Part shown: positions 21,634 through 41,642 of the stretch, piece after piece
Layout: the number at the start of each line of letters is the position of its first letter
How positions within the stretch are numbered: position 1 is the stretch's first letter
Source of the DNA: Escherichia phage vB_EcoM_ECO1230-10
Sequence record: NC_027995.1
Length of the DNA: 41,666 nt
Reading direction: 5' to 3' (one strand)
Notes under the pieces: model-generated
Told to the model about the DNA's origin: nothing
What the model saw: the letters and a program-made list of their open reading frames with translations, nothing else
Database searches by the model: none
Translations under genes and position numbers: made by a program

Positions 21634-23167
21634 TTTGCTGCCCCATTAACAGTTGTTTGTCCATGCCCATGCTTTGCATGACCAGTTTTTCCGCCATTTC
21701 GCGGCTGATACCGTGCTGCGTGTACGCCTCAATCATGCGCGCCACGTCGCTGGCGGTTTCCTTCCAAACGGTGTCAGGGTCGCTGCCACCTTCACGGATG
21801 ATGCGGCCAGGTGATTGCAGCATGTTGTTTTTGGACCGTTCAGCAGCTGCCACGTCAGATGACGGGTCAATCCAGGCCCAACGGCGTGGCTGCCATTCAA
21901 TGTTGCTGTAGCGGTCGATGCGTTCCGGTTTCAGGCTTCGTCCTTTAACGGTGATGCGGCCAGCAAGCAGGGCACGCGGCAACCATGCTTCAAAAACTGG
22001 TTGATGCAGGTTTTCAATCAACCATTCCTGCAATTCTTTCCAGTTTTCTCGGCTGTCTAGCGTTCCCTGGCGGATAGAGCTGAAATTGACGCCTTCCAGG
22101 TCGCTGGCAAGGTCATTATATGGAACACCCATACCCGATGCCATGCCGCGCAGCATTTGTTTGGTGAACACGGCAAATTCGCCGTTTGGGTATTGTGGCG
22201 ACCAGTCTTTGACGCGTGCGCCCTGTGGCAGAATCTGGAATTCACCCGGTTCACTGTCAATGATCAGTTCATCATCATCTTCAAACTCAGGACCAGCGGA
22301 ATTTTCATCCCATTCGATGAATCCCATTTTGTTGGCACCGGCGCGCGCGTTGACCAGCGCGGCTTCTTCCATGCCACCCAGGTGGCGCATACGAAACAGG
22401 CTGGTGGCCATCCACGGAAGGCCGCGTTTCTGCCCCACCATGTCATCCAGGAAGCCGTGAAGGATTTCATCAGCGGGAATTCGCACGAAATCACGCCCGG
22501 ACCAACGGTAGTTATCATTGGATTCATCAACCGTGCTGAAATAGTACGCAACAGGCCGCCCGTAGCGATTAAACTCGATGCCCTGGCGGATGAAATTTCC
22601 GTTATTCAGACGATCTTCAACCATGTCAACAGGGCAGCGTTGCGGGTCCAGCAGTTGCAGCGCGAAGCCCCACGGCCCTGCATCGGCACCGAACACCAGG
22701 CGCACGAAGAATTCACCATCTTTAGCCGTGCTGTTGACGCAGGCAGCCTGGATGGCGCGCCAGGATAACTTCCCTGTCACGTCGCAGTTTGACTTGTGCC
22801 CCCACTTATCGAAGGCCGTTTCAATGGCTTCGTTGGCCAGGGTGTCCAGTTTCCCGGTGTTGTCAGTGCTTTTGGCCTGCAACAGAACGCCTTTTGGACC
22901 AACAATATTGTTGCGGCACAGGCGCAGGAACTTTTTGGCATAATCATTGTTGGCGGCCTGCTCGCGGGAACGCGCCACCAGGATGCGTTGATTTTTGTTT
23001 ATTACCTCGTCAGCCGTCAGCGGCTGTGTACCCCACGCGGTTCCAAAACGGTCAATACTGGCACCGGTAAACATACGGGACGCCAGGCGGTTAAGCGATA
23101 AACGCCGCGTGCGCGGCTGTTGTGCCTGTTCTGCAGGCTTATTTCTGGTAAATGGCCACAGTTTCAT
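21611..23167 (-). CDS. portal protein (lambda gpB family)
   Basis: 518 aa; position between terminase and protease; lambda-B-like central region. Confidence 0.85.
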   Translation of the reverse strand: MKLWPFTRNKPAEQAQQPRTRRLSLNRLASRMFTGASIDRFGTAWGTQPLTADEVINKNQRILVARSREQAANNDYAKKFLRLCRNNIVGPKGVLLQAKSTDNTGKLDTLANEAIETAFDKWGHKSNCDVTGKLSWRAIQAACVNSTAKDGEFFVRLVFGADAGPWGFALQLLDPQRCPVDMVEDRLNNGNFIRQGIEFNRYGRPVAYYFSTVDESNDNYRWSGRDFVRIPADEILHGFLDDMVGQKRGLPWMATSLFRMRHLGGMEEAALVNARAGANKMGFIEWDENSAGPEFEDDDELIIDSEPGEFQILPQGARVKDWSPQYPNGEFAVFTKQMLRGMASGMGVPYNDLASDLEGVNFSSIRQGTLDSRENWKELQEWLIENLHQPVFEAWLPRALLAGRITVKGRSLKPERIDRYSNIEWQPRRWAWIDPSSDVAAAERSKNNMLQSPGRIIREGGSDPDTVWKETASDVARMIEAYTQHGISREMAEKLVMQSMGMDKQLLMGQQNAEKPAE

Positions 23168-30068: not shown

Positions 30069-30407
30069 TCAATCGCAACCCCCACTGGATGAACTGCTGC
30101 TGTCACAACTGCCGCCGTCATATCCGCCGCTGTCGTGTCCGCTGCTGCGGTGGTGGCTGTCACCGCTGCTATGATAAATCTGGCTGTTCGGGCTTAACGG
30201 GTTCAGTGGGTTCAGCGGGTCGCTGGAATCGTTGCGGCGGCTGATGGTGGCACTACTGTGCCGGTGGCCAGTTGCCTTGCCGGTTGGACGTGAAGACAAT
30301 GCGCGCACGATGTCATCATGGTTGCGCAGGCTGGTGGTGATGGTCACCTTATTCTGTACGGTTTTCGGTTTGCGCCCAAACAGGCGTGCCAGTAAGCGTT
30401 TAAACAT
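30069..30407 (-). CDS. low-complexity protein (basic N-terminus; Ser/Gly/Asp/His-rich C-terminus with PLNPLNPLSP repeat)
   Basis: ORF track; underlying 9-bp tandem repeat gggttcag(t/c); coding status uncertain. Confidence 0.4.
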   Translation of the reverse strand: MFKRLLARLFGRKPKTVQNKVTITTSLRNHDDIVRALSSRPTGKATGHRHSSATISRRNDSSDPLNPLNPLSPNSQIYHSSGDSHHRSSGHDSGGYDGGSCDSSSSSSGGCD

Positions 30408-30790: not shown

Positions 30791-30811
30791 CAAAACCCGC
30801 CGAAGCGGGTT
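30783..30811 (-). terminator. intrinsic terminator after primase gene
   Basis: minus sense acccgc-ttcg-gcgggt followed by TTTTGTTTTTA. Confidence 0.65.
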
Positions 30812-30816
30812 ATCAA

Positions 30817-33120
30817 TCAAAATGGCCGGTCATCATCGTCATTGAATCGCCGGTGGTCAGGATTTGGCACCTTCGGCGGCAGGCTGAACAGGCGGTTGCT
30901 GCCAGACTTCCTGGCTGGCTTGCCAGTGAGTTTTCGAAGCACGCCAGCGCAATGGGTTGTCTGTGCCTTGTTCGGCTTATCGTAGCCTATTTCTTGCAGC
31001 ACCTGGGTTGCTGTACGGTCGGTGTAGGCTGCTGGTCTGTCGCAACCCCACTCGTAACGCATCAGTATCATTTCCTCTACCGGGTCAATCGCTTCGTGTT
31101 CCTTGTTCACTTGTTCCAGCATGGCTTCTTCTTCTGCGTTCATCCACCAGCGTTCGCCTTCGCGGTACAACTGCGCCACTTCTGCCCAAACTTGCTGCAT
31201 ATCAATATCGTGTTCGTAGTTGATGCGTGTTACCGGAATGGTCCACCAGCGAACGTTCCCTGTGTCATCCGCCAGGAAGTGTTTCGGGTTCACTGACGCA
31301 AAAAACACGGTTCTGCGCTGGTAGGTCGATTCAAGCCGGTCGTAAGGTCTGCGGATTTCGTCACGGTCCTGGCTGATGAATGATTTCAGGCGCGCAATGT
31401 CGGATTTGCGAAAAGTTGCATCCAGTTCGCCAAGCTCCACCATCCAGCGGCCAATTGCGCTGCTCACGCTGTCTTTGTTTGCCGGGTCGATTGTTGCCCC
31501 TACCTTAATTAATTCACGCAGTGTAGGCGGAACCAGCGAACGAAACCATGCTGTTTTCCCCAGCGACTGTTCACCCTGTAGCACCAGAACTCCTTTTGAG
31601 TAGAACCCGGTTGGCTGCATTGCTGCGGCAACGGCGGAAATCAACCAGCGGCGAACCATCATCAACACCAGACTGCGGTCAAAACCTTCCGCCGTTTCCA
31701 GTGTGTCACACAGGTCATAAATTCTGCTTACTCCATCCCACGGTTTTGCGGTGATAAATTCAGATGCAGGGTTGTAACGGTTGCTCATGGCAATCAGCTT
31801 TACATATTCAGCACAGGAACCAGACGGCATACCGTTGCGGGCACACAGGCTGACAATTTCAGTCAATGCACTGTTCGCTGATGCGTCGTTTCCGTAATCC
31901 TTTCCGGGGATCGTAACCACCACATCTTTGCTGATTTCGTTGTAACGCGATTTGATGCCGTACTGGTCAAGCAGCCATTCCAGGTTTTCCCACGTGTTAA
32001 GCGGTTTTTGCTGGTGGCTCATGTGCGGGAACATGAACGGGTTTACGCTGGCATCCAGAGGCAGAAAGTTATCATTCACCGGTTCCGGTATCACCGCGTT
32101 AATCTGGTCGCTTACAGCGTTTAAACCTTCCAGCACGTGCAGGTCATTAAAGTCGGTAGGCTTATCGCTAAGGCGCGTAAATTTAGGAACCGCCAGCAGG
32201 CCACCTGTTGTGATTGATGCCTGGCGCGCGTAGTGAACTCCATCATTTTGCTTGCCATCTTCGTGCCACTGGTCATTATCGGCTGCCACAACAATTGTTG
32301 CGCGTCCGAACTGCTGGCGCATCAGCTTGGCTACGGTCGGAACGTTTCCAGCATCGAAAGCGACCACCACGCAGTAACCGGTAGCCATGTGAATTGATGC
32401 GCCGGTGGAATACCCTTCACAGATAACAATAACCGGGTTTGCGCCAGTTGGTTTGTTGCCAATGACGTGGAAGCACCCACGTTTCTGGCCGCCCGGCAGG
32501 TAATCACGGTCACGCCCTAGCTGTGGGTTTTCGTTCTGGAATATGGCTTGCAGGCTGGTGATCTGCCCGTCAATGTTTCTGATTGGCACCAGCAGCGCGC
32601 CATCCTGGTTACGAAAACGACCGATGCGCAGCCCGAATGATTTAACCAGTTTGCGTTTCAGGTATGGGTGTTCATCGCCTTCCAGTTCGGTAGCTGATTC
32701 CCATATGTTGCGCGCCTGCTCTGCTGCCTGCGCCATACGTTCGGCGCGCAGTTGTTGTTCTTTGCGCTCTTCTTCTTCGCGGCGTTGTTTGCGCGCCTGA
32801 ATTTCTTCTGCAGAAATCGGCGTGCGTTCGTTGTCGTTCAGCGAAAAGCCAAATAACTGCGCCTCACCAATCAGGGTGCCAATGCCAATGCCGCCGTGAC
32901 GCTTCACTGATTTCCAGGTGTCGCGTGCGTCTTTGCTGTTGTACTTGTCAGACTGGCGTGACCAGTCATTCCAGACGGTGAAACCGCCGTCGCCTAGTTC
33001 CGATTTGACCGCCATCGCCATGCGCACCCATGTTTCACGGTCGCAACCGGCGTCAATGTAGGAAAGTGCTTCTGCAATTTCCTGTTCGGTCAAATCCTTA
33101 TAGTTTTGTTGTGCACTCAT
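30817..33120 (-). CDS. DNA primase / replicative NTPase (PriCT + TOPRIM + P-loop, P4-alpha/D5-like)
   Basis: TOPRIM VIVICEGYSTGASI and VVAADND; Walker A GEQSLGKT; 767 aa; C-terminus ends DDDDRPF. Confidence 0.85.
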   Translation of the reverse strand: MSAQQNYKDLTEQEIAEALSYIDAGCDRETWVRMAMAVKSELGDGGFTVWNDWSRQSDKYNSKDARDTWKSVKRHGGIGIGTLIGEAQLFGFSLNDNERTPISAEEIQARKQRREEEERKEQQLRAERMAQAAEQARNIWESATELEGDEHPYLKRKLVKSFGLRIGRFRNQDGALLVPIRNIDGQITSLQAIFQNENPQLGRDRDYLPGGQKRGCFHVIGNKPTGANPVIVICEGYSTGASIHMATGYCVVVAFDAGNVPTVAKLMRQQFGRATIVVAADNDQWHEDGKQNDGVHYARQASITTGGLLAVPKFTRLSDKPTDFNDLHVLEGLNAVSDQINAVIPEPVNDNFLPLDASVNPFMFPHMSHQQKPLNTWENLEWLLDQYGIKSRYNEISKDVVVTIPGKDYGNDASANSALTEIVSLCARNGMPSGSCAEYVKLIAMSNRYNPASEFITAKPWDGVSRIYDLCDTLETAEGFDRSLVLMMVRRWLISAVAAAMQPTGFYSKGVLVLQGEQSLGKTAWFRSLVPPTLRELIKVGATIDPANKDSVSSAIGRWMVELGELDATFRKSDIARLKSFISQDRDEIRRPYDRLESTYQRRTVFFASVNPKHFLADDTGNVRWWTIPVTRINYEHDIDMQQVWAEVAQLYREGERWWMNAEEEAMLEQVNKEHEAIDPVEEMILMRYEWGCDRPAAYTDRTATQVLQEIGYDKPNKAQTTHCAGVLRKLTGKPARKSGSNRLFSLPPKVPNPDHRRFNDDDDRPF

Positions 33121-35962: not shown

Positions 35963-36631
35963 TTATTTGCCGGTCGGAATCCCACACAGCGCGTTCAGGT
36001 CAGCGACTGACAGCGCAATGCCAGTGCATGGCTGTTTAGCAATCGGCGTAGTTTCTGGAATCAGTTCTTTTGCATCTGGCCATGCTTCCAGGAGTTTTTC
36101 CACAGTTGTGAACCCTGAAATTGTCGCTTTCAGTGTTGATTTAAGCGTGTTGTATTCTTCACGCAGTTGCGCAGCTTCCTGGTCGATAGCGTCCAGTTCT
36201 TCGCGCCATTTCGGATCGCATACGATGAAATCTTTTTCGCAGGTATGCGGTGAATATTTTTTCTCGTCGTATTCAGCCACCGATTCCTTGAATAGCGGTT
36301 CATATCGTGCATCGGTGTTAACGCCGTTGCGATAAACGTAACGAGACTGGCCGGATAAATTAACGTCTAAACGGTATTGGCTACCATCAAATTCTACTCG
36401 CACATAGCTAGCGCCTTCGTGCTTAACCTCTTTTGCAAGTTTCTCAACCTGCTCCTTGATTTCTGCCAGTCGTTCATCAGTCAGACCGTATTCACCCAGG
36501 ATAAATAGGCGCAGACGTTCAGCAAAATCAGCGCGTTTCTGAACGATAGCCAAATCACGGCCTGCAAAGTCTTTGGTTTTGATTGCGTTGGCAATGATGC
36601 CATCACGGATTGCAGCGGTTAAACGTGCCAT
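35963..36631 (-). CDS. hypothetical protein (222 aa)
   Basis: start MARLTAAI with AAGAGGAAA SD; the track's longer ORF starts at the ATG inside element A. Confidence 0.6.
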   Translation of the reverse strand: MARLTAAIRDGIIANAIKTKDFAGRDLAIVQKRADFAERLRLFILGEYGLTDERLAEIKEQVEKLAKEVKHEGASYVRVEFDGSQYRLDVNLSGQSRYVYRNGVNTDARYEPLFKESVAEYDEKKYSPHTCEKDFIVCDPKWREELDAIDQEAAQLREEYNTLKSTLKATISGFTTVEKLLEAWPDAKELIPETTPIAKQPCTGIALSVADLNALCGIPTGK

Positions 36632-36675
36632 TTTGGTGTTTCCTCTTTTGTTGTTGAGCACCTGTGTGCCGGTGA

Positions 36676-36731
36676 AATAACTATACATTTCCTTTGGTAA
36701 ATATCGCCAATCGGTTGTACCTATTAATAAA
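36676..36731 (-). promoter_or_regulatory. conserved intergenic element copy A (downstream of helicase)
   Basis: homologous to 30737-30790; contains AGGAAATG. Confidence 0.4.
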
Positions 36732-39595: not shown

Positions 39596-40585
39596 ATGGC
39601 AGTAATTAATATTCGTAAGGCAGAACGTGAAGGCGCGCGCCTGGTCATCGGCCTGGCAGGTATCAGCGGCAGTGGCAAAACCCTGTCAGCACTTATGCTG
39701 GCATACGGCCTGGCCAACGGTGACGGCACAAAGGTTGGCTTTCTCGATACTGAAAACCGCCGTGGCTCACTGTATGCCAGTGATGACACTTATGAAAAAA
39801 TCAAGGAATCACTTGGACTGAAAGAACGCCCTGACGCGTTTTGGATTGGCGATTTAGAACCTCCTTTCAGTCCGCAGCGCTACATTGACGCCATCCGCGA
39901 ATTTGAAAAGGCAGGCGTTGAAGTTCTGGTGATCGACTCCATCAGCCACGAATGGGAAGGAACAGGCGGCTGCGAAGAAATCGCCACCCTGGCCAACCCG
40001 TTGAAGCCACAATGGAACCGCGCGAAGGCGGAACACAAACGATTCATGAACGCGTTGCTGCAATCCAACATGCACATCATCTGCTGCATCCGCGCACGTG
40101 AAAAAGTGAAACTGGTGAAGGTCAACGGTAAAACGGAATATGAACCGCAAGGCATCATGCCGGTGACGGAAAAGAACGTGATGTTTGAAATGACCGCCAG
40201 CCTGATGATGTGGGATTCTGGCAGCGCGCAGCAGGTCATGAAGTGCCCGGAAGAATTGCGCGGCATCTTAGGACGTGAAACGGGCTACATTAGCGCGCAG
40301 GACGGTTTGGCGCTGCGTCAGTGGGTTCATGGTGGCAACAAGTTAGATCCGAAGGTGGAAGCCTACCGCAACAAGCTGCGCGGCGTTACAGAACAGGGTG
40401 AGCAGTACACGCAAGAATGTTGGGACAAAACCCCGCCAAATATCCGCAAGGCGTTGGGCGATGACTTCAAACAATCATTGTTGGAAGCGGCCCGCGCATA
40501 TGACGAACAGCGCACCAACGCCAACGGCGATGCGCAGGACGTTGATGATTTAAACAGCCAGGTGATGGGCACCGGCGCACAGTAG
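39596..40585 (+). CDS. Sak4-like RecA-fold ATPase (single-strand annealing/recombination)
   Basis: Walker A GISGSGKT; VLVIDSISHEW (Walker B-like); adjacent to exonuclease and SSB. Confidence 0.65.
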   Translation: MAVINIRKAEREGARLVIGLAGISGSGKTLSALMLAYGLANGDGTKVGFLDTENRRGSLYASDDTYEKIKESLGLKERPDAFWIGDLEPPFSPQRYIDAIREFEKAGVEVLVIDSISHEWEGTGGCEEIATLANPLKPQWNRAKAEHKRFMNALLQSNMHIICCIRAREKVKLVKVNGKTEYEPQGIMPVTEKNVMFEMTASLMMWDSGSAQQVMKCPEELRGILGRETGYISAQDGLALRQWVHGGNKLDPKVEAYRNKLRGVTEQGEQYTQECWDKTPPNIRKALGDDFKQSLLEAARAYDEQRTNANGDAQDVDDLNSQVMGTGAQ

Positions 40586-41156: not shown

Positions 41157-41642
41157 ATGGCCGGTTCACTGAACAAAGTAGAAATCATTGGCAACTTAGG
41201 CAACGATCCAGAAATCCGTTACATGCCAAGCGGCGGCGCGGTTGCTAATCTAAGCATCGCCACAACTGAAAGCTGGAAGGATAAAACCACCGGCGAGAAG
41301 AAAGAACAAACGGAATGGCACCGCGTTGTCATCTTCGGTAAGCTGGCAGAAATTGCTAGCGAATACCTGCGCAAAGGTAGCAAGGTGTTCATTGAAGGCA
41401 GCCTGCGAACGCGTAAATGGCAGGACCAGGCTGGCGTTGATCGCTACACCACTGAAATCAACGTGGGCATGAATGGACGGTTGTTGATGCTGTCAGCGGC
41501 CAACGATAACCAGGCCGGTGGGCAAAGCCAGGGCAGCCAGCAAGGCGGATGGGGTAATCCGCAGCAGCCAACCCACAGCGGCAAACAGAAACCACCAGCG
41601 AACGAACCCCCGATGGACTTCGATGATGACATCCCGTTTTAA
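41157..41642 (+). CDS. ssb: single-stranded DNA-binding protein
   Basis: OB-fold N-terminus ([33 protein letters not shown]), Gly/Gln-rich linker, acidic tail DFDDDIPF. Confidence 0.9.

Follow-up and report, generated by a model that had tools for sequence, protein, structure and literature searches.

The bacterial SSB C-terminal tip (SSB-Ct, DFDDDIPF) is a hub peptide that recruits chi, DnaG, PriA, RecQ, ExoI, RecO, RecG and other proteins. In the RecO and ExoI complexes only the hydrophobic end of the tip is ordered, and a single mutation of P176 or F177 is as damaging as the loss of all three Asp residues (PMC3152348; PMC10143822). In phage T7, the helicase-primase gp4 ends in SNDTDF and its cognate SSB, gp2.5, in ADEDGDF. 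The acidic gp4 tails bind basic patches on the polymerase, which they tether to the helicase, and their deletion reduces processivity from 17 kb to ~5 kb (PMC12593628; PMC8472574). The polymerase concerned is the phage's own gp5/thioredoxin, and binding is mainly electrostatic.

The P4 replicon relies on host Pol III, and its alpha protein unites primase, helicase and origin binder in a single polypeptide. The Rep proteins of SaPI elements are hexameric helicases with 3'-5' polarity, a mobile C-terminal winged-helix domain that binds the origin (iterons) and a primase that is either fused or adjacent (PMC9371898). How an SF3-type helicase is coupled to the host Pol III holoenzyme in polymerase-less phages and satellites is not understood, the elements concerned being relatives of P4, SaPI/PICI elements and the Jilinvirus-like group of Escherichia phage vB_EcoM_ECO1230-10. 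Here we describe an SSB-tip-like C-terminus on the primase-helicase of this phage and follow it through the protein family. We found no description of a motif of this kind on VapE or primase-helicase proteins in full-text searches, largely outside subscription journals, for SSB-like tails of primases and helicases or for vB_EcoM_ECO1230-10, and an earlier mention is possible.

Architecture of the primase-helicase and its C-terminus

The window analysed, 41,666 nucleotides (NC_027995.1), is the complete genome of vB_EcoM_ECO1230-10. An ORF on the minus strand (30817..33120) encodes a product of 767 amino acids that matches the deposited 'DNA primase' of the phage at 100%. This 'primase' is a PriCT-2/Toprim/VapE-like (SF3) helicase/winged-helix protein. 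The PriCT-2 domain occupies residues 16-86 (32863..33075, minus strand; Pfam PF08707, E=8.5e-21) and is followed by the Toprim, or primase catalytic, domain at residues 231-332 (32125..32430, minus strand; PF13362, E=9e-10), for which the Foldseek matches are DnaG RNA-polymerase domains. Residues 460-676 form a VapE-like P-loop helicase domain of SF3 type (31093..31743, minus strand; PF05272, E=2.3e-51), a domain with 37,432 matching proteins at E<=1e-3. A winged-helix-like domain at approximately residues 700-747 (30880..31023, minus strand) was delineated from AlphaFold2 secondary structure, with helices at 704-710 and 718-732 and strands at 737-739 and 742-747. The protein matches SaPI1 Rep1 (PDB 7PDS) both by sequence profile (E=2.9e-31) and by Foldseek (E=3e-19), and its assignment as a hexameric helicase is by homology to that hexameric protein. 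With a VapE-like P-loop, a C-terminal winged helix and an N-terminally fused primase domain it has the features of a PriRep-like protein.

The C-terminal peptide of the primase-helicase, HRRFNDDDDRPF, ends in FNDDDDRPF (PNPDHRRFNDDDDRPF). The initial annotation had reported that the primase finishes in an SSB-tip-like DDDDRPF and that the phage's own SSB carries such a tip as well, and translation bears out both statements. The reverse complement of 30817..30840 reads GAC GAT GAT GAC CGG CCA TTT TGA, giving D D D D R P F and a stop; the acidic tip (residues 761-767) thus lies at 30820..30840 and the TGA at 30817..30819, both on the minus strand. As in the SSB tip, the terminal Phe767 directly precedes the stop and is left with a free alpha-carboxylate. 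The phage SSB gene (41157..41642, plus strand; 161 amino acids; PF00436, E=1e-38) served as a comparator with a canonical tip, DFDDDIPF at 41616..41639 (plus strand), which is identical to the E. coli SSB-Ct octapeptide quoted in PMC10143822. The primase-helicase C-terminus is genuine because an intrinsic-terminator-like hairpin, AACCCGCTTCGGCGGGTT, followed by a T-run, TTGTTTTTAT, lies 5 nt past the stop (30811..30794, minus strand); together with the identity to the deposited protein, this rules out a mis-called end.

The tip hangs on a linker that is predicted to be disordered. In the AlphaFold2 monomer, which has a mean pLDDT of 83.7, confidence drops to 58 and 46 within the last 20 residues (748-767), the rest of the protein being confidently folded. 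The linker proper, PPKVPNPDHRRFN (residues 748-760; 30841..30879, minus strand), connects the winged-helix domain to the tip with a mean pLDDT of ~58, and values are below 50 at residues 762-767. Both the length and the sequence of this linker differ among homologues. The predicted disorder is that of an SSB-Ct-type motif.

Among all ORFs of at least 60 amino acids in the six frames of the genome, SSB and the primase-helicase are the only two that end in -PF, and the same pair makes up the PF-ending ORFs of this size in phages ep3, FoX2 and Mano. The chance of at least three acidic residues out of five followed by a C-terminal PF is ~3.7e-5 per protein, or ~2e-3 for a proteome of ~55 proteins. 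No DNA polymerase was found among the ORFs of the complete genome, and ORFs longer than ~380 amino acids other than the primase-helicase encode structural or packaging proteins or an SNF2-like helicase. A module of SSB, AAA_24, DUF3799 exonuclease, SNF2-like helicase, VRR-NUC and primase-helicase genes is syntenic across the phage relatives.

Conservation of the tail among homologues

The initial annotation had named absence of the tail from homologous primases as the observation that would count against it. The opposite was found, with Pro at -2 (counting from the C-terminal residue) kept in at least 90% of 60 aligned homologues sharing 51-90% identity. With the homologues clustered by UPGMA on pairwise identity, almost every member of the helicase subfamily at ~47% identity or more has a P-F or P-Y/I/L end. 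Among homologues P0041-P0120 the endings are PF in 43, PY in 11, PI in 8 and PL in 8. When the family was reduced to 149 representatives with no more than 50% identity to each other, 14 ended in PF against 0.28 expected (p=7e-20), and the PF-enders averaged 2.0 acidic residues at -9..-3 vs 0.81 in the others. The tail residues are also kept across synonymous codon variation (CCA/CCG, TTT/TTC, CGG/AGG/AGA) in phages of Escherichia, Achromobacter and Acinetobacter and one metagenomic relative. The enrichment and this codon pattern rule out a chance origin.

The likeness to the SSB tip that the initial annotation had proposed is real, the consensus of 54 distinct PF tails being D-D-D-(R/A)-P-F, but it is not exact. 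Asp occupies -6, -5 and -4 in 26, 27 and 19 of these 54 tails, respectively, and position -3 is Arg in 21 and Ala in 11, with Ile or Leu in none. SSBs from the same genomes carry Ile or Thr there, so the tail is a systematic variant rather than a copy of the SSB tip. Moreover, the acidic run is missing in the Pseudomonas-phage clade, whose tails have GPPI, GAPF and AAPY endings, and the Xanthomonas phage FoX2 tail (SGGPF) likewise lacks it. Within the Pseudomonas-phage clade, the primase-helicase of phage Persinger ends in HRHIGPPI, yet the SSB of this phage retains FDDDTPF. The primase and SSB tails of a given genome showed no co-variation: the primase tail differs from phage to phage, but SSB retains D(I/T)PF.

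Helicase-only proteins (P0180, P0200 and P0222) carry the tail too, as do fusions of the helicase to a DnaG zinc ribbon/DUF6371 (P0144 and P0146). From these sequence comparisons we assign the tail to the helicase/winged-helix module rather than the primase domain; the helicase-only relatives and those with other N-termini rule out a primase-domain feature. The P0222 and P0146 genes sit in small islands with an integrase and an AlpA- or HTH_17-type regulator, in which no SSB or polymerase was detected.

Comparison with described systems

The primase-helicase tail resembles SSB-Ct in its position at the extreme C-terminus on a predicted disordered linker, and in its terminal Pro-Phe preceded by three to four Asp residues (here DDDD at -7..-4). 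The family consensus DDD(R/A)PF and the SSB sequence DDDIPF agree at five of six positions and differ only at -3. In both, constraint is stronger on the PF than on the acidic run, as judged for SSB from client structures and mutagenesis (PMC3152348), and the conservation pattern of the tail fits what is known of residue importance in the SSB tip. The two differ in that the tail is borne by an SF3 helicase-primase and not by an OB-fold tetramer, and in that its end is not IPF: SSB-Ct has Ile, Leu or Pro at -3, whereas Arg765 is found here and Arg or Ala in the family. The tail also has its second aromatic residue at -9 rather than -7, some clades do without the acidic run, and Y, I or L can take the place of the terminal Phe.

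T7 gp4 offers a parallel, being likewise a helicase-primase (hexameric by homology in our case) with a flexible, Phe-ended acidic tail that resembles the tail of the cognate SSB; the pairs are NDTDF/EDGDF in T7 and DDDRPF/DDDIPF in vB_EcoM_ECO1230-10. However, gp4 is an SF4 helicase of 5'-3' polarity whose fold is unrelated to the VapE/SF3 module, DF takes the place of PF at the ends of the T7 tails, and the gp4 partner is a phage polymerase, which vB_EcoM_ECO1230-10 does not have. Among solved structures, the self-loading SF3 helicases SaPI Rep1 and PriRep5 (PDB 7PDS and 7OLA) are nearest to the helicase half. Identity between SaPI Rep and the primase-helicase is only ~20%, the hosts of SaPIs are Gram-positive, and no SSB-like C-terminal tail is described in the SaPI Rep paper, which mentions SSB 0 times (PMC9371898). 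P4 alpha shares the single-polypeptide arrangement as a distant relative only, and since it ends in GDWLPKCDDPTTA, without a PF tip, a tail common to both proteins is ruled out.

Proposed role of the tail and alternatives

The tail thus forms a short linear motif at the C-terminus, [D/E]2-4-(R/A)-P-F-COOH, which is conserved, is predicted to be disordered and is carried on a flexible linker of 10-25 residues beyond the winged helix of an SF3 (VapE-type) primase-helicase-initiator assigned as hexameric. Its recognition chemistry is that of the bacterial SSB tip: the terminal Phe bears a free carboxylate, Pro precedes it and an acidic run lies upstream. We propose that the motif docks on a replication partner, into a pocket of the SSB-tip type, hydrophobic and rimmed by basic residues. 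Each hexamer would present six of these tethers. A host protein is the most probable partner, given that the phage has no DNA polymerase and that tiny, satellite-like islands encode helicase-only relatives with the same tail. We take the chi subunit of the Pol III clamp loader as the leading candidate; a contact with chi would physically link a foreign 3'-5' helicase to Pol III, as tau normally does for DnaB. Taken as a whole, an SSB-tip-type docking peptide for a replication partner, probably of the host and with chi foremost, is a reading that we hold tentatively, at slightly under an even chance. We infer the docking role, the host origin of the partner and its identity from the comparisons above, and the choice of chi in particular is a guess by analogy with known SSB biology.

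Two features of the tail, its systematic Arg at -3 and the missing acidic run in Pseudomonas phages, argue for a selective partner rather than exact mimicry of SSB. Since Ile or Leu never occurs at -3 in the 54 PF tails, the pocket may not be a generic SSB-tip site. Also counting against the docking proposal are the subfamily members with no such ending and the lack of a comparable tail on P4 alpha, the classical primase-helicase served by host Pol III. A more specific version, which we consider unlikely, is that the VapE/SF3 self-loading helicase subfamily in phages, prophages and satellites of Proteobacteria has a selective built-in SSB tip that would connect the helicase to the host SSB interactome, bind chi-psi and replace the DnaB-tau contact, with Arg at -3 tuning it towards that client and away from ExoI, RecJ and RecQ. 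If true, this version would account for the capture of the host replicase by mobile elements that have 3'-5' helicases but no polymerase. A conserved SSB-tip-type peptide displayed six-fold provides a concrete and cheaply testable hypothesis for the coupling. Should docking hold, SSB-tip mimicry would be a general strategy of mobile elements, and the natural R/A variants at -3 could inform the design of SSB-tip-mimetic antibacterials; should it fail, the tail remains a clean family-wide C-terminal motif with a partner worth finding.

The tail could instead act on its own protein, folding onto the winged-helix DNA-binding surface, the central channel or a neighbouring subunit of the hexamer. 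Like the tails of E. coli SSB and T7 gp2.5, for which such action on their own OB folds has been proposed, it would be a DNA mimic or latch, here controlling when the protein passes from binding the origin to translocating. Its location directly after the winged-helix domain and its co-occurrence with the helicase/winged-helix module whatever the N-terminus are both consistent with such autoregulation; the C-terminal domain of SaPI Rep is highly mobile and needed for full ATPase and helicase activity (PMC9371898), and for T7 gp2.5 the tail is reported to control both DNA binding and dimerisation of the protein itself (PMC10359462). However, it is P-F-COOH and not the charges that is strictly kept, and because clades without acidic residues retain the P-hydrophobic end, a specific pocket fits better than electrostatic DNA mimicry. 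AlphaFold2 also predicts no docking of the tail in cis, leaving it free on the monomer with pLDDT <50, and overall we regard autoregulation as rather improbable. Binding to a phage-encoded partner, whether the OB fold of SSB, the Sak4-like AAA_24 ATPase, the PDDEXK exonuclease or the SNF2-like helicase, has a lower probability still in our estimation. It would build a phage-specific replisome or recombination-dependent replication complex, in keeping with the synteny of the replication/recombination module from SSB to the primase-helicase and with the canonical tip on each phage SSB, which presumably has phage as well as host clients. Set against this, the tailed helicase-only and DnaG-zinc-ribbon relatives sit in small integrase-bearing islands without any of the module genes, which makes a common partner more likely to be host-encoded.

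Host DNA-repair hubs are commonly targeted by phage proteins, and a tail with the same chemistry as the SSB tip might serve as a decoy, competing with host SSB for clients such as ExoI, RecQ, RecJ and PriA and thereby blunting nucleases or replication restart at phage forks. We think this very unlikely, since stoichiometric competition with the abundant tetrameric SSB is implausible for a low-copy replicative helicase and the phage already makes an SSB with a perfect host-type tip. C-terminal peptides can also be degrons, and clamp-binding motifs are often C-terminal. The beta-clamp consensus is QL[SD]LF or QLxLxL, which FNDDDDRPF, having neither Q nor L, does not resemble, and the tail shows no likeness to the ssrA-like or MuA-like motifs of known ClpX degrons; a beta-clamp-binding motif and a known ClpX degron were both rejected on these grounds. 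A neutral look-alike of the SSB tip is excluded by the enrichment of PF ends and the retention of residues over synonymous codon change, and this last group of readings, in which the tail has another function or none, is likewise very unlikely.

Subfamily members without the tail

A PF-type ending is lacking altogether in subfamily members P0107, P0123, P0128 and P0129, and the close relative P0024 ends in RQF. When tail-less members were checked for a different architecture, such as a fused polymerase, nine of ten had an ordinary VapE-type one, with or without PriCT-2/Toprim; P0210 is the only one with an NrS-1-polymerase-like domain.

Identity and C-terminus of the annotated primase

The protein annotated 'DNA primase' in vB_EcoM_ECO1230-10 (30817..33120 (-), 767 aa, 100% identical to the deposited protein) contains Pfam PriCT-2 (residues 16-86), Toprim (residues 231-332) and VapE-like P-loop (residues 460-676) domains, followed in an AlphaFold2 model by a winged-helix-like domain at about residues 700-747. 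The model, for which 60 homologues served as input, is confident overall (mean pLDDT 83.7), with pLDDT falling to 58 and then 46 over residues 748-767. SaPI1 Rep1 (7PDS, 'similar to D. nodosus vapE') was the sole solved structure found by sequence profile as well as the best Foldseek match, ranking ahead of the NrS-1 helicase region, SaPI5 PriRep5, and the poxvirus and ASFV primase-helicases. SaPI Rep helicases belong to SF3, form hexamers, load themselves and have 3'-5' polarity; origin iterons are bound by their C-terminal winged-helix domain, which is mobile (PMC9371898). Based on its domain content and likeness to SaPI Rep, the 'DNA primase' is therefore a primase-helicase-initiator, closed by a DDDDRPF tail attached to its origin-binding C-terminal domain. 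The intervening linker residues 748-760 (30841..30879 (-)) include proline-rich PxxP-like elements (LPPKVPNP), of which 'MPP/LPP' is kept in most homologues, recalling the PxxP motifs debated for the disordered linker of SSB.

Translation of 30817..30840 (-) (GAC GAT GAT GAC CGG CCA TTT TGA) yields DDDDRPF and a stop, as the initial annotation had reported. An intrinsic-terminator-like hairpin and T-run (30811..30794 (-)) lies 5 nt downstream of the stop, so DDDDRPF is the true end of both the protein and its transcription unit. The same annotation rightly stated that the phage's own SSB (41157..41642 (+); PF00436, E=1e-38) carries such a tip, its last eight residues being identical to the octapeptide that PMC10143822 gives for E. 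coli SSB-Ct. A six-frame scan of ORFs >=60 aa found -PF endings in the window on these two proteins only.

Conservation of the tail

An ending of at least three acidic residues of five followed by PF-COOH has a probability, from amino-acid composition, of ~3.7e-5 per protein or ~2e-3 per phage proteome. Conservation in homologues is the stronger argument against chance. The initial annotation had made its reading depend on such conservation, and in a 60-sequence alignment the proline at -2 (counting the last residue as -1) is conserved in at least 90% of homologues, while the 5-25 residues between winged helix and tip are free to vary in length and sequence. ECO1230-10 is related to the myoviruses ep3 (genus Jilinvirus, subfamily Iiscvirinae), ECOO78, Bas97, PT1, Arya and KA2-1. 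Among the 120 closest cluster representatives, tails read (D/E)DDDRPF in the ECO1230-10 clade, DD(D/N)(S/E/K/Q)PF in the ep3/Arya clade, and once more DDDARPF, EEDRPF, DDDVRPF or EDDMRPF in a clade at 50-55% identity. In a 60-68% identity clade from Pseudomonas phages, e.g. Persinger and PPpW-3, the endings are G(A/P)P(F/Y/I/L) and not acidic. Two homologues break the motif, one 99% identical (P0024, DDDDRQF, Pro to Gln) and one 72% identical (P0057, ...KVFPYGN); either these are artefacts of sequencing or they speak against a strict requirement for the tip.

HMMER, run exhaustively against 1.84 billion representatives, recovered 149 further homologues; 14 of them have a PF ending (0.28 expected, p=7e-20) and 31 an F ending (5.6 expected), with 2.0 acidic residues at -9 to -3 in the PF-enders versus 0.81 in the others. 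Clustering on the helicase half shows that nearly all members of the subfamily at ~47% identity to the query or above end in P-F or P-hydrophobic; outside this subfamily such endings are sporadic. The consensus over 54 distinct PF tails is D-D-D-(R/A)-P-F, making the ECO1230-10 tail essentially the family consensus. Tail residues are kept despite synonymous codon change (CCA/CCG, TTT/TTC, CGG/AGG/AGA) across phages of Escherichia, Achromobacter (Mano, ...EDYDRPF) and Acinetobacter (Alexa, ...NDYDRPF) and a metagenomic phage (...DDDARPF). As in the window, PF endings on ORFs >=60 aa are limited to SSB and primase-helicase in ep3, FoX2 and Mano; the metagenomic locus L002 has one extra PF-ending ORF, antisense to a called gene. 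In one 764-aa homologue (P0076) the tail is tandemly duplicated (...PPELHRFGAPLHRFGAPF), a sequence which suggests that the tip region evolves by short duplications.

The tail goes with the helicase/winged-helix module rather than with the Toprim primase. VapE-only proteins of ~460 aa carry it (P0180, ...YEDDRPF; P0222, ...DDDGRPF; P0200, ...HEERPF), as do proteins whose N-terminus is a DnaG-type zinc ribbon or DUF6371 (P0146, ...DDEYPI; P0144, ...ADDDRPL). The P0222 island adjoins guaA and encodes an integrase, AlpA and VapE, and the P0146 island an integrase, HTH_17 regulators and the primase-VapE protein; no SSB or polymerase was seen in either. Phage relatives share a syntenic module of SSB, Sak4-like AAA_24 ATPase, DUF3799/PDDEXK exonuclease, SNF2-like helicase, VRR-NUC and primase-helicase. 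No DNA polymerase was found in ECO1230-10, whose ORFs above ~380 aa are all structural/packaging or the SNF2-like helicase, and none is listed in the ep3 annotation.

Comparison with the SSB tip

Five of the six consensus positions (DDD-x-PF), the placement at the very C-terminus and the predicted disordered linker bear out the resemblance to the SSB tip proposed initially; position -3 does not, being chiefly Arg or Ala and never Ile or Leu in the 54 PF tails. Constraint on PF exceeds that on the acidic residues, a pattern that matches SSB biochemistry: SSB-Ct is ordered only at its hydrophobic end in RecO and ExoI complexes, and a single P176 or F177 mutation is as costly as loss of all three Asp (PMC3152348), with both the IPF element and the Asp residues contributing to affinity (PMC10143822). 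SSB tails of the same genomes read DDDIPF (ECO1230-10, ep3, L002, Mano), DDQIPF (FoX2) and DDDTPF (Persinger), and no co-variation with the primase-helicase tails was seen; in Persinger the SSB keeps FDDDTPF while the primase-helicase ends HRHIGPPI. Given the systematic difference at -3 and the absent co-variation, the tail would not copy the SSB tip but represent a parallel and selective variation on its chemistry. The annotated Persinger SSB (21720..22256) has a Cys-rich N-terminal extension (MKCACAHVGATDFKPCGRCE...) overlapping the preceding DksA-like zinc-finger gene, and its start codon is probably mis-called.

Proposed function and alternatives

We infer, at a little below an even chance, that the tail is a tethered docking peptide for a replication partner. 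Pro-Phe-COOH would insert into a basic-rimmed hydrophobic pocket, the acidic run would steer docking, and a hexamer would display six copies. The partner might instead be phage-encoded (e.g. the SSB OB fold, Sak4-like ATPase, exonuclease or SNF2 helicase), which is improbable given that the tail also occurs in satellites without those genes. Since the same tail is found in polymerase-less phages and in minimal satellite-like islands without SSB, the common partner would most economically be a host protein. In the replisome, the proteins known to recognise the SSB tip are chi and DnaG (PMC3632105, PMC6783573), and the leading candidate, still a doubtful one, is the clamp-loader subunit chi of Pol III. 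The DnaB-tau contact is unusable by a 3'-5' SF3 helicase, so a link between tail and chi would provide the coupling of helicase to polymerase that is otherwise missing.

Autoregulation, with the tail as a latch or DNA mimic that engages the adjacent winged helix or a neighbouring subunit, is plausible from the position of the tail, but we consider it unlikely, as the constrained element is PF rather than charge and AF2 does not predict docking of the tail on the monomer. That the tail is a decoy for host proteins reading the SSB tip is very improbable, the stoichiometry being unfavourable and the phage already having a perfect SSB tip of its own. Fainter still is the prospect that the tail serves as a degron, binds the clamp or has no function: it resembles neither a degron nor a clamp-binding motif, and a neutral, functionless tail is excluded by the PF enrichment.

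The closest functional precedent is T7, in which the gp4 helicase-primase ends ...SNDTDF and the SSB gp2.5 ...ADEDGDF. Lee et al. 2006 (J Biol Chem) reportedly found the C-terminal Phe of gp4 to be critical. Acidic gp4 tails bind basic patches of the polymerase, and deleting them leaves a processivity of about 5 kb instead of 17 kb (PMC12593628, PMC8472574); the title of Hamdan et al. 2005, cited in PMC10359462, describes one polymerase loop binding the helicase-primase, the DNA-binding protein and also the processivity factor. ECO1230-10 would have a host-polymerase version of this arrangement on an unrelated helicase fold. It is already known that acidic, aromatic-terminated C-terminal tails mediate replisome contacts and that a helicase, as in T7, can share the tail of its SSB. 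What appears new is a PF tip of the host-SSB kind, family-wide on SF3/VapE helicases of polymerase-less elements, with a conserved Arg/Ala at -3. Neither an SSB-like tail on VapE/primase-helicase proteins nor the feature in ECO1230-10 and relatives was found described in a full-text literature search, most subscription-journal papers lying outside it and an earlier mention being possible.

Neighbouring genes

The 329-aa protein at 39596..40585 (+), with AAA_24 (Sak4/RadB-like ATPase) as its sole match, adjoins the DUF3799/PDDEXK exonuclease, and its orthologue is annotated 'replicative DNA helicase' or 'DNA helicase' in RefSeq relatives. That label appears to be mistaken; it is the VapE domain of the 'primase' that would be the true replicative helicase. 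The SSB gene stops 24 nt short of the right end of the linear record, and the primase lies at the other side of the replication module; because the window is the whole 41,666-bp genome, a circularly permuted or concatemeric form may join the module to the left end. Between the SNF2-like helicase and VRR-NUC nuclease of this module lies a 241-aa protein (35963..36688 (-)) with an Nmad5 domain (nucleotide-modification-associated domain 5, E=8e-38), which hints at modification of DNA in this group of phages. Downstream of the primase terminator, a 112-aa ORF (30069..30407 (-)) has a low-complexity, Ser/Gly/Asp/His-rich C-terminal half (...SSGDSHHRSSGHDSGGYDGGSCDSSSSSSGGCD) with no apparent function.
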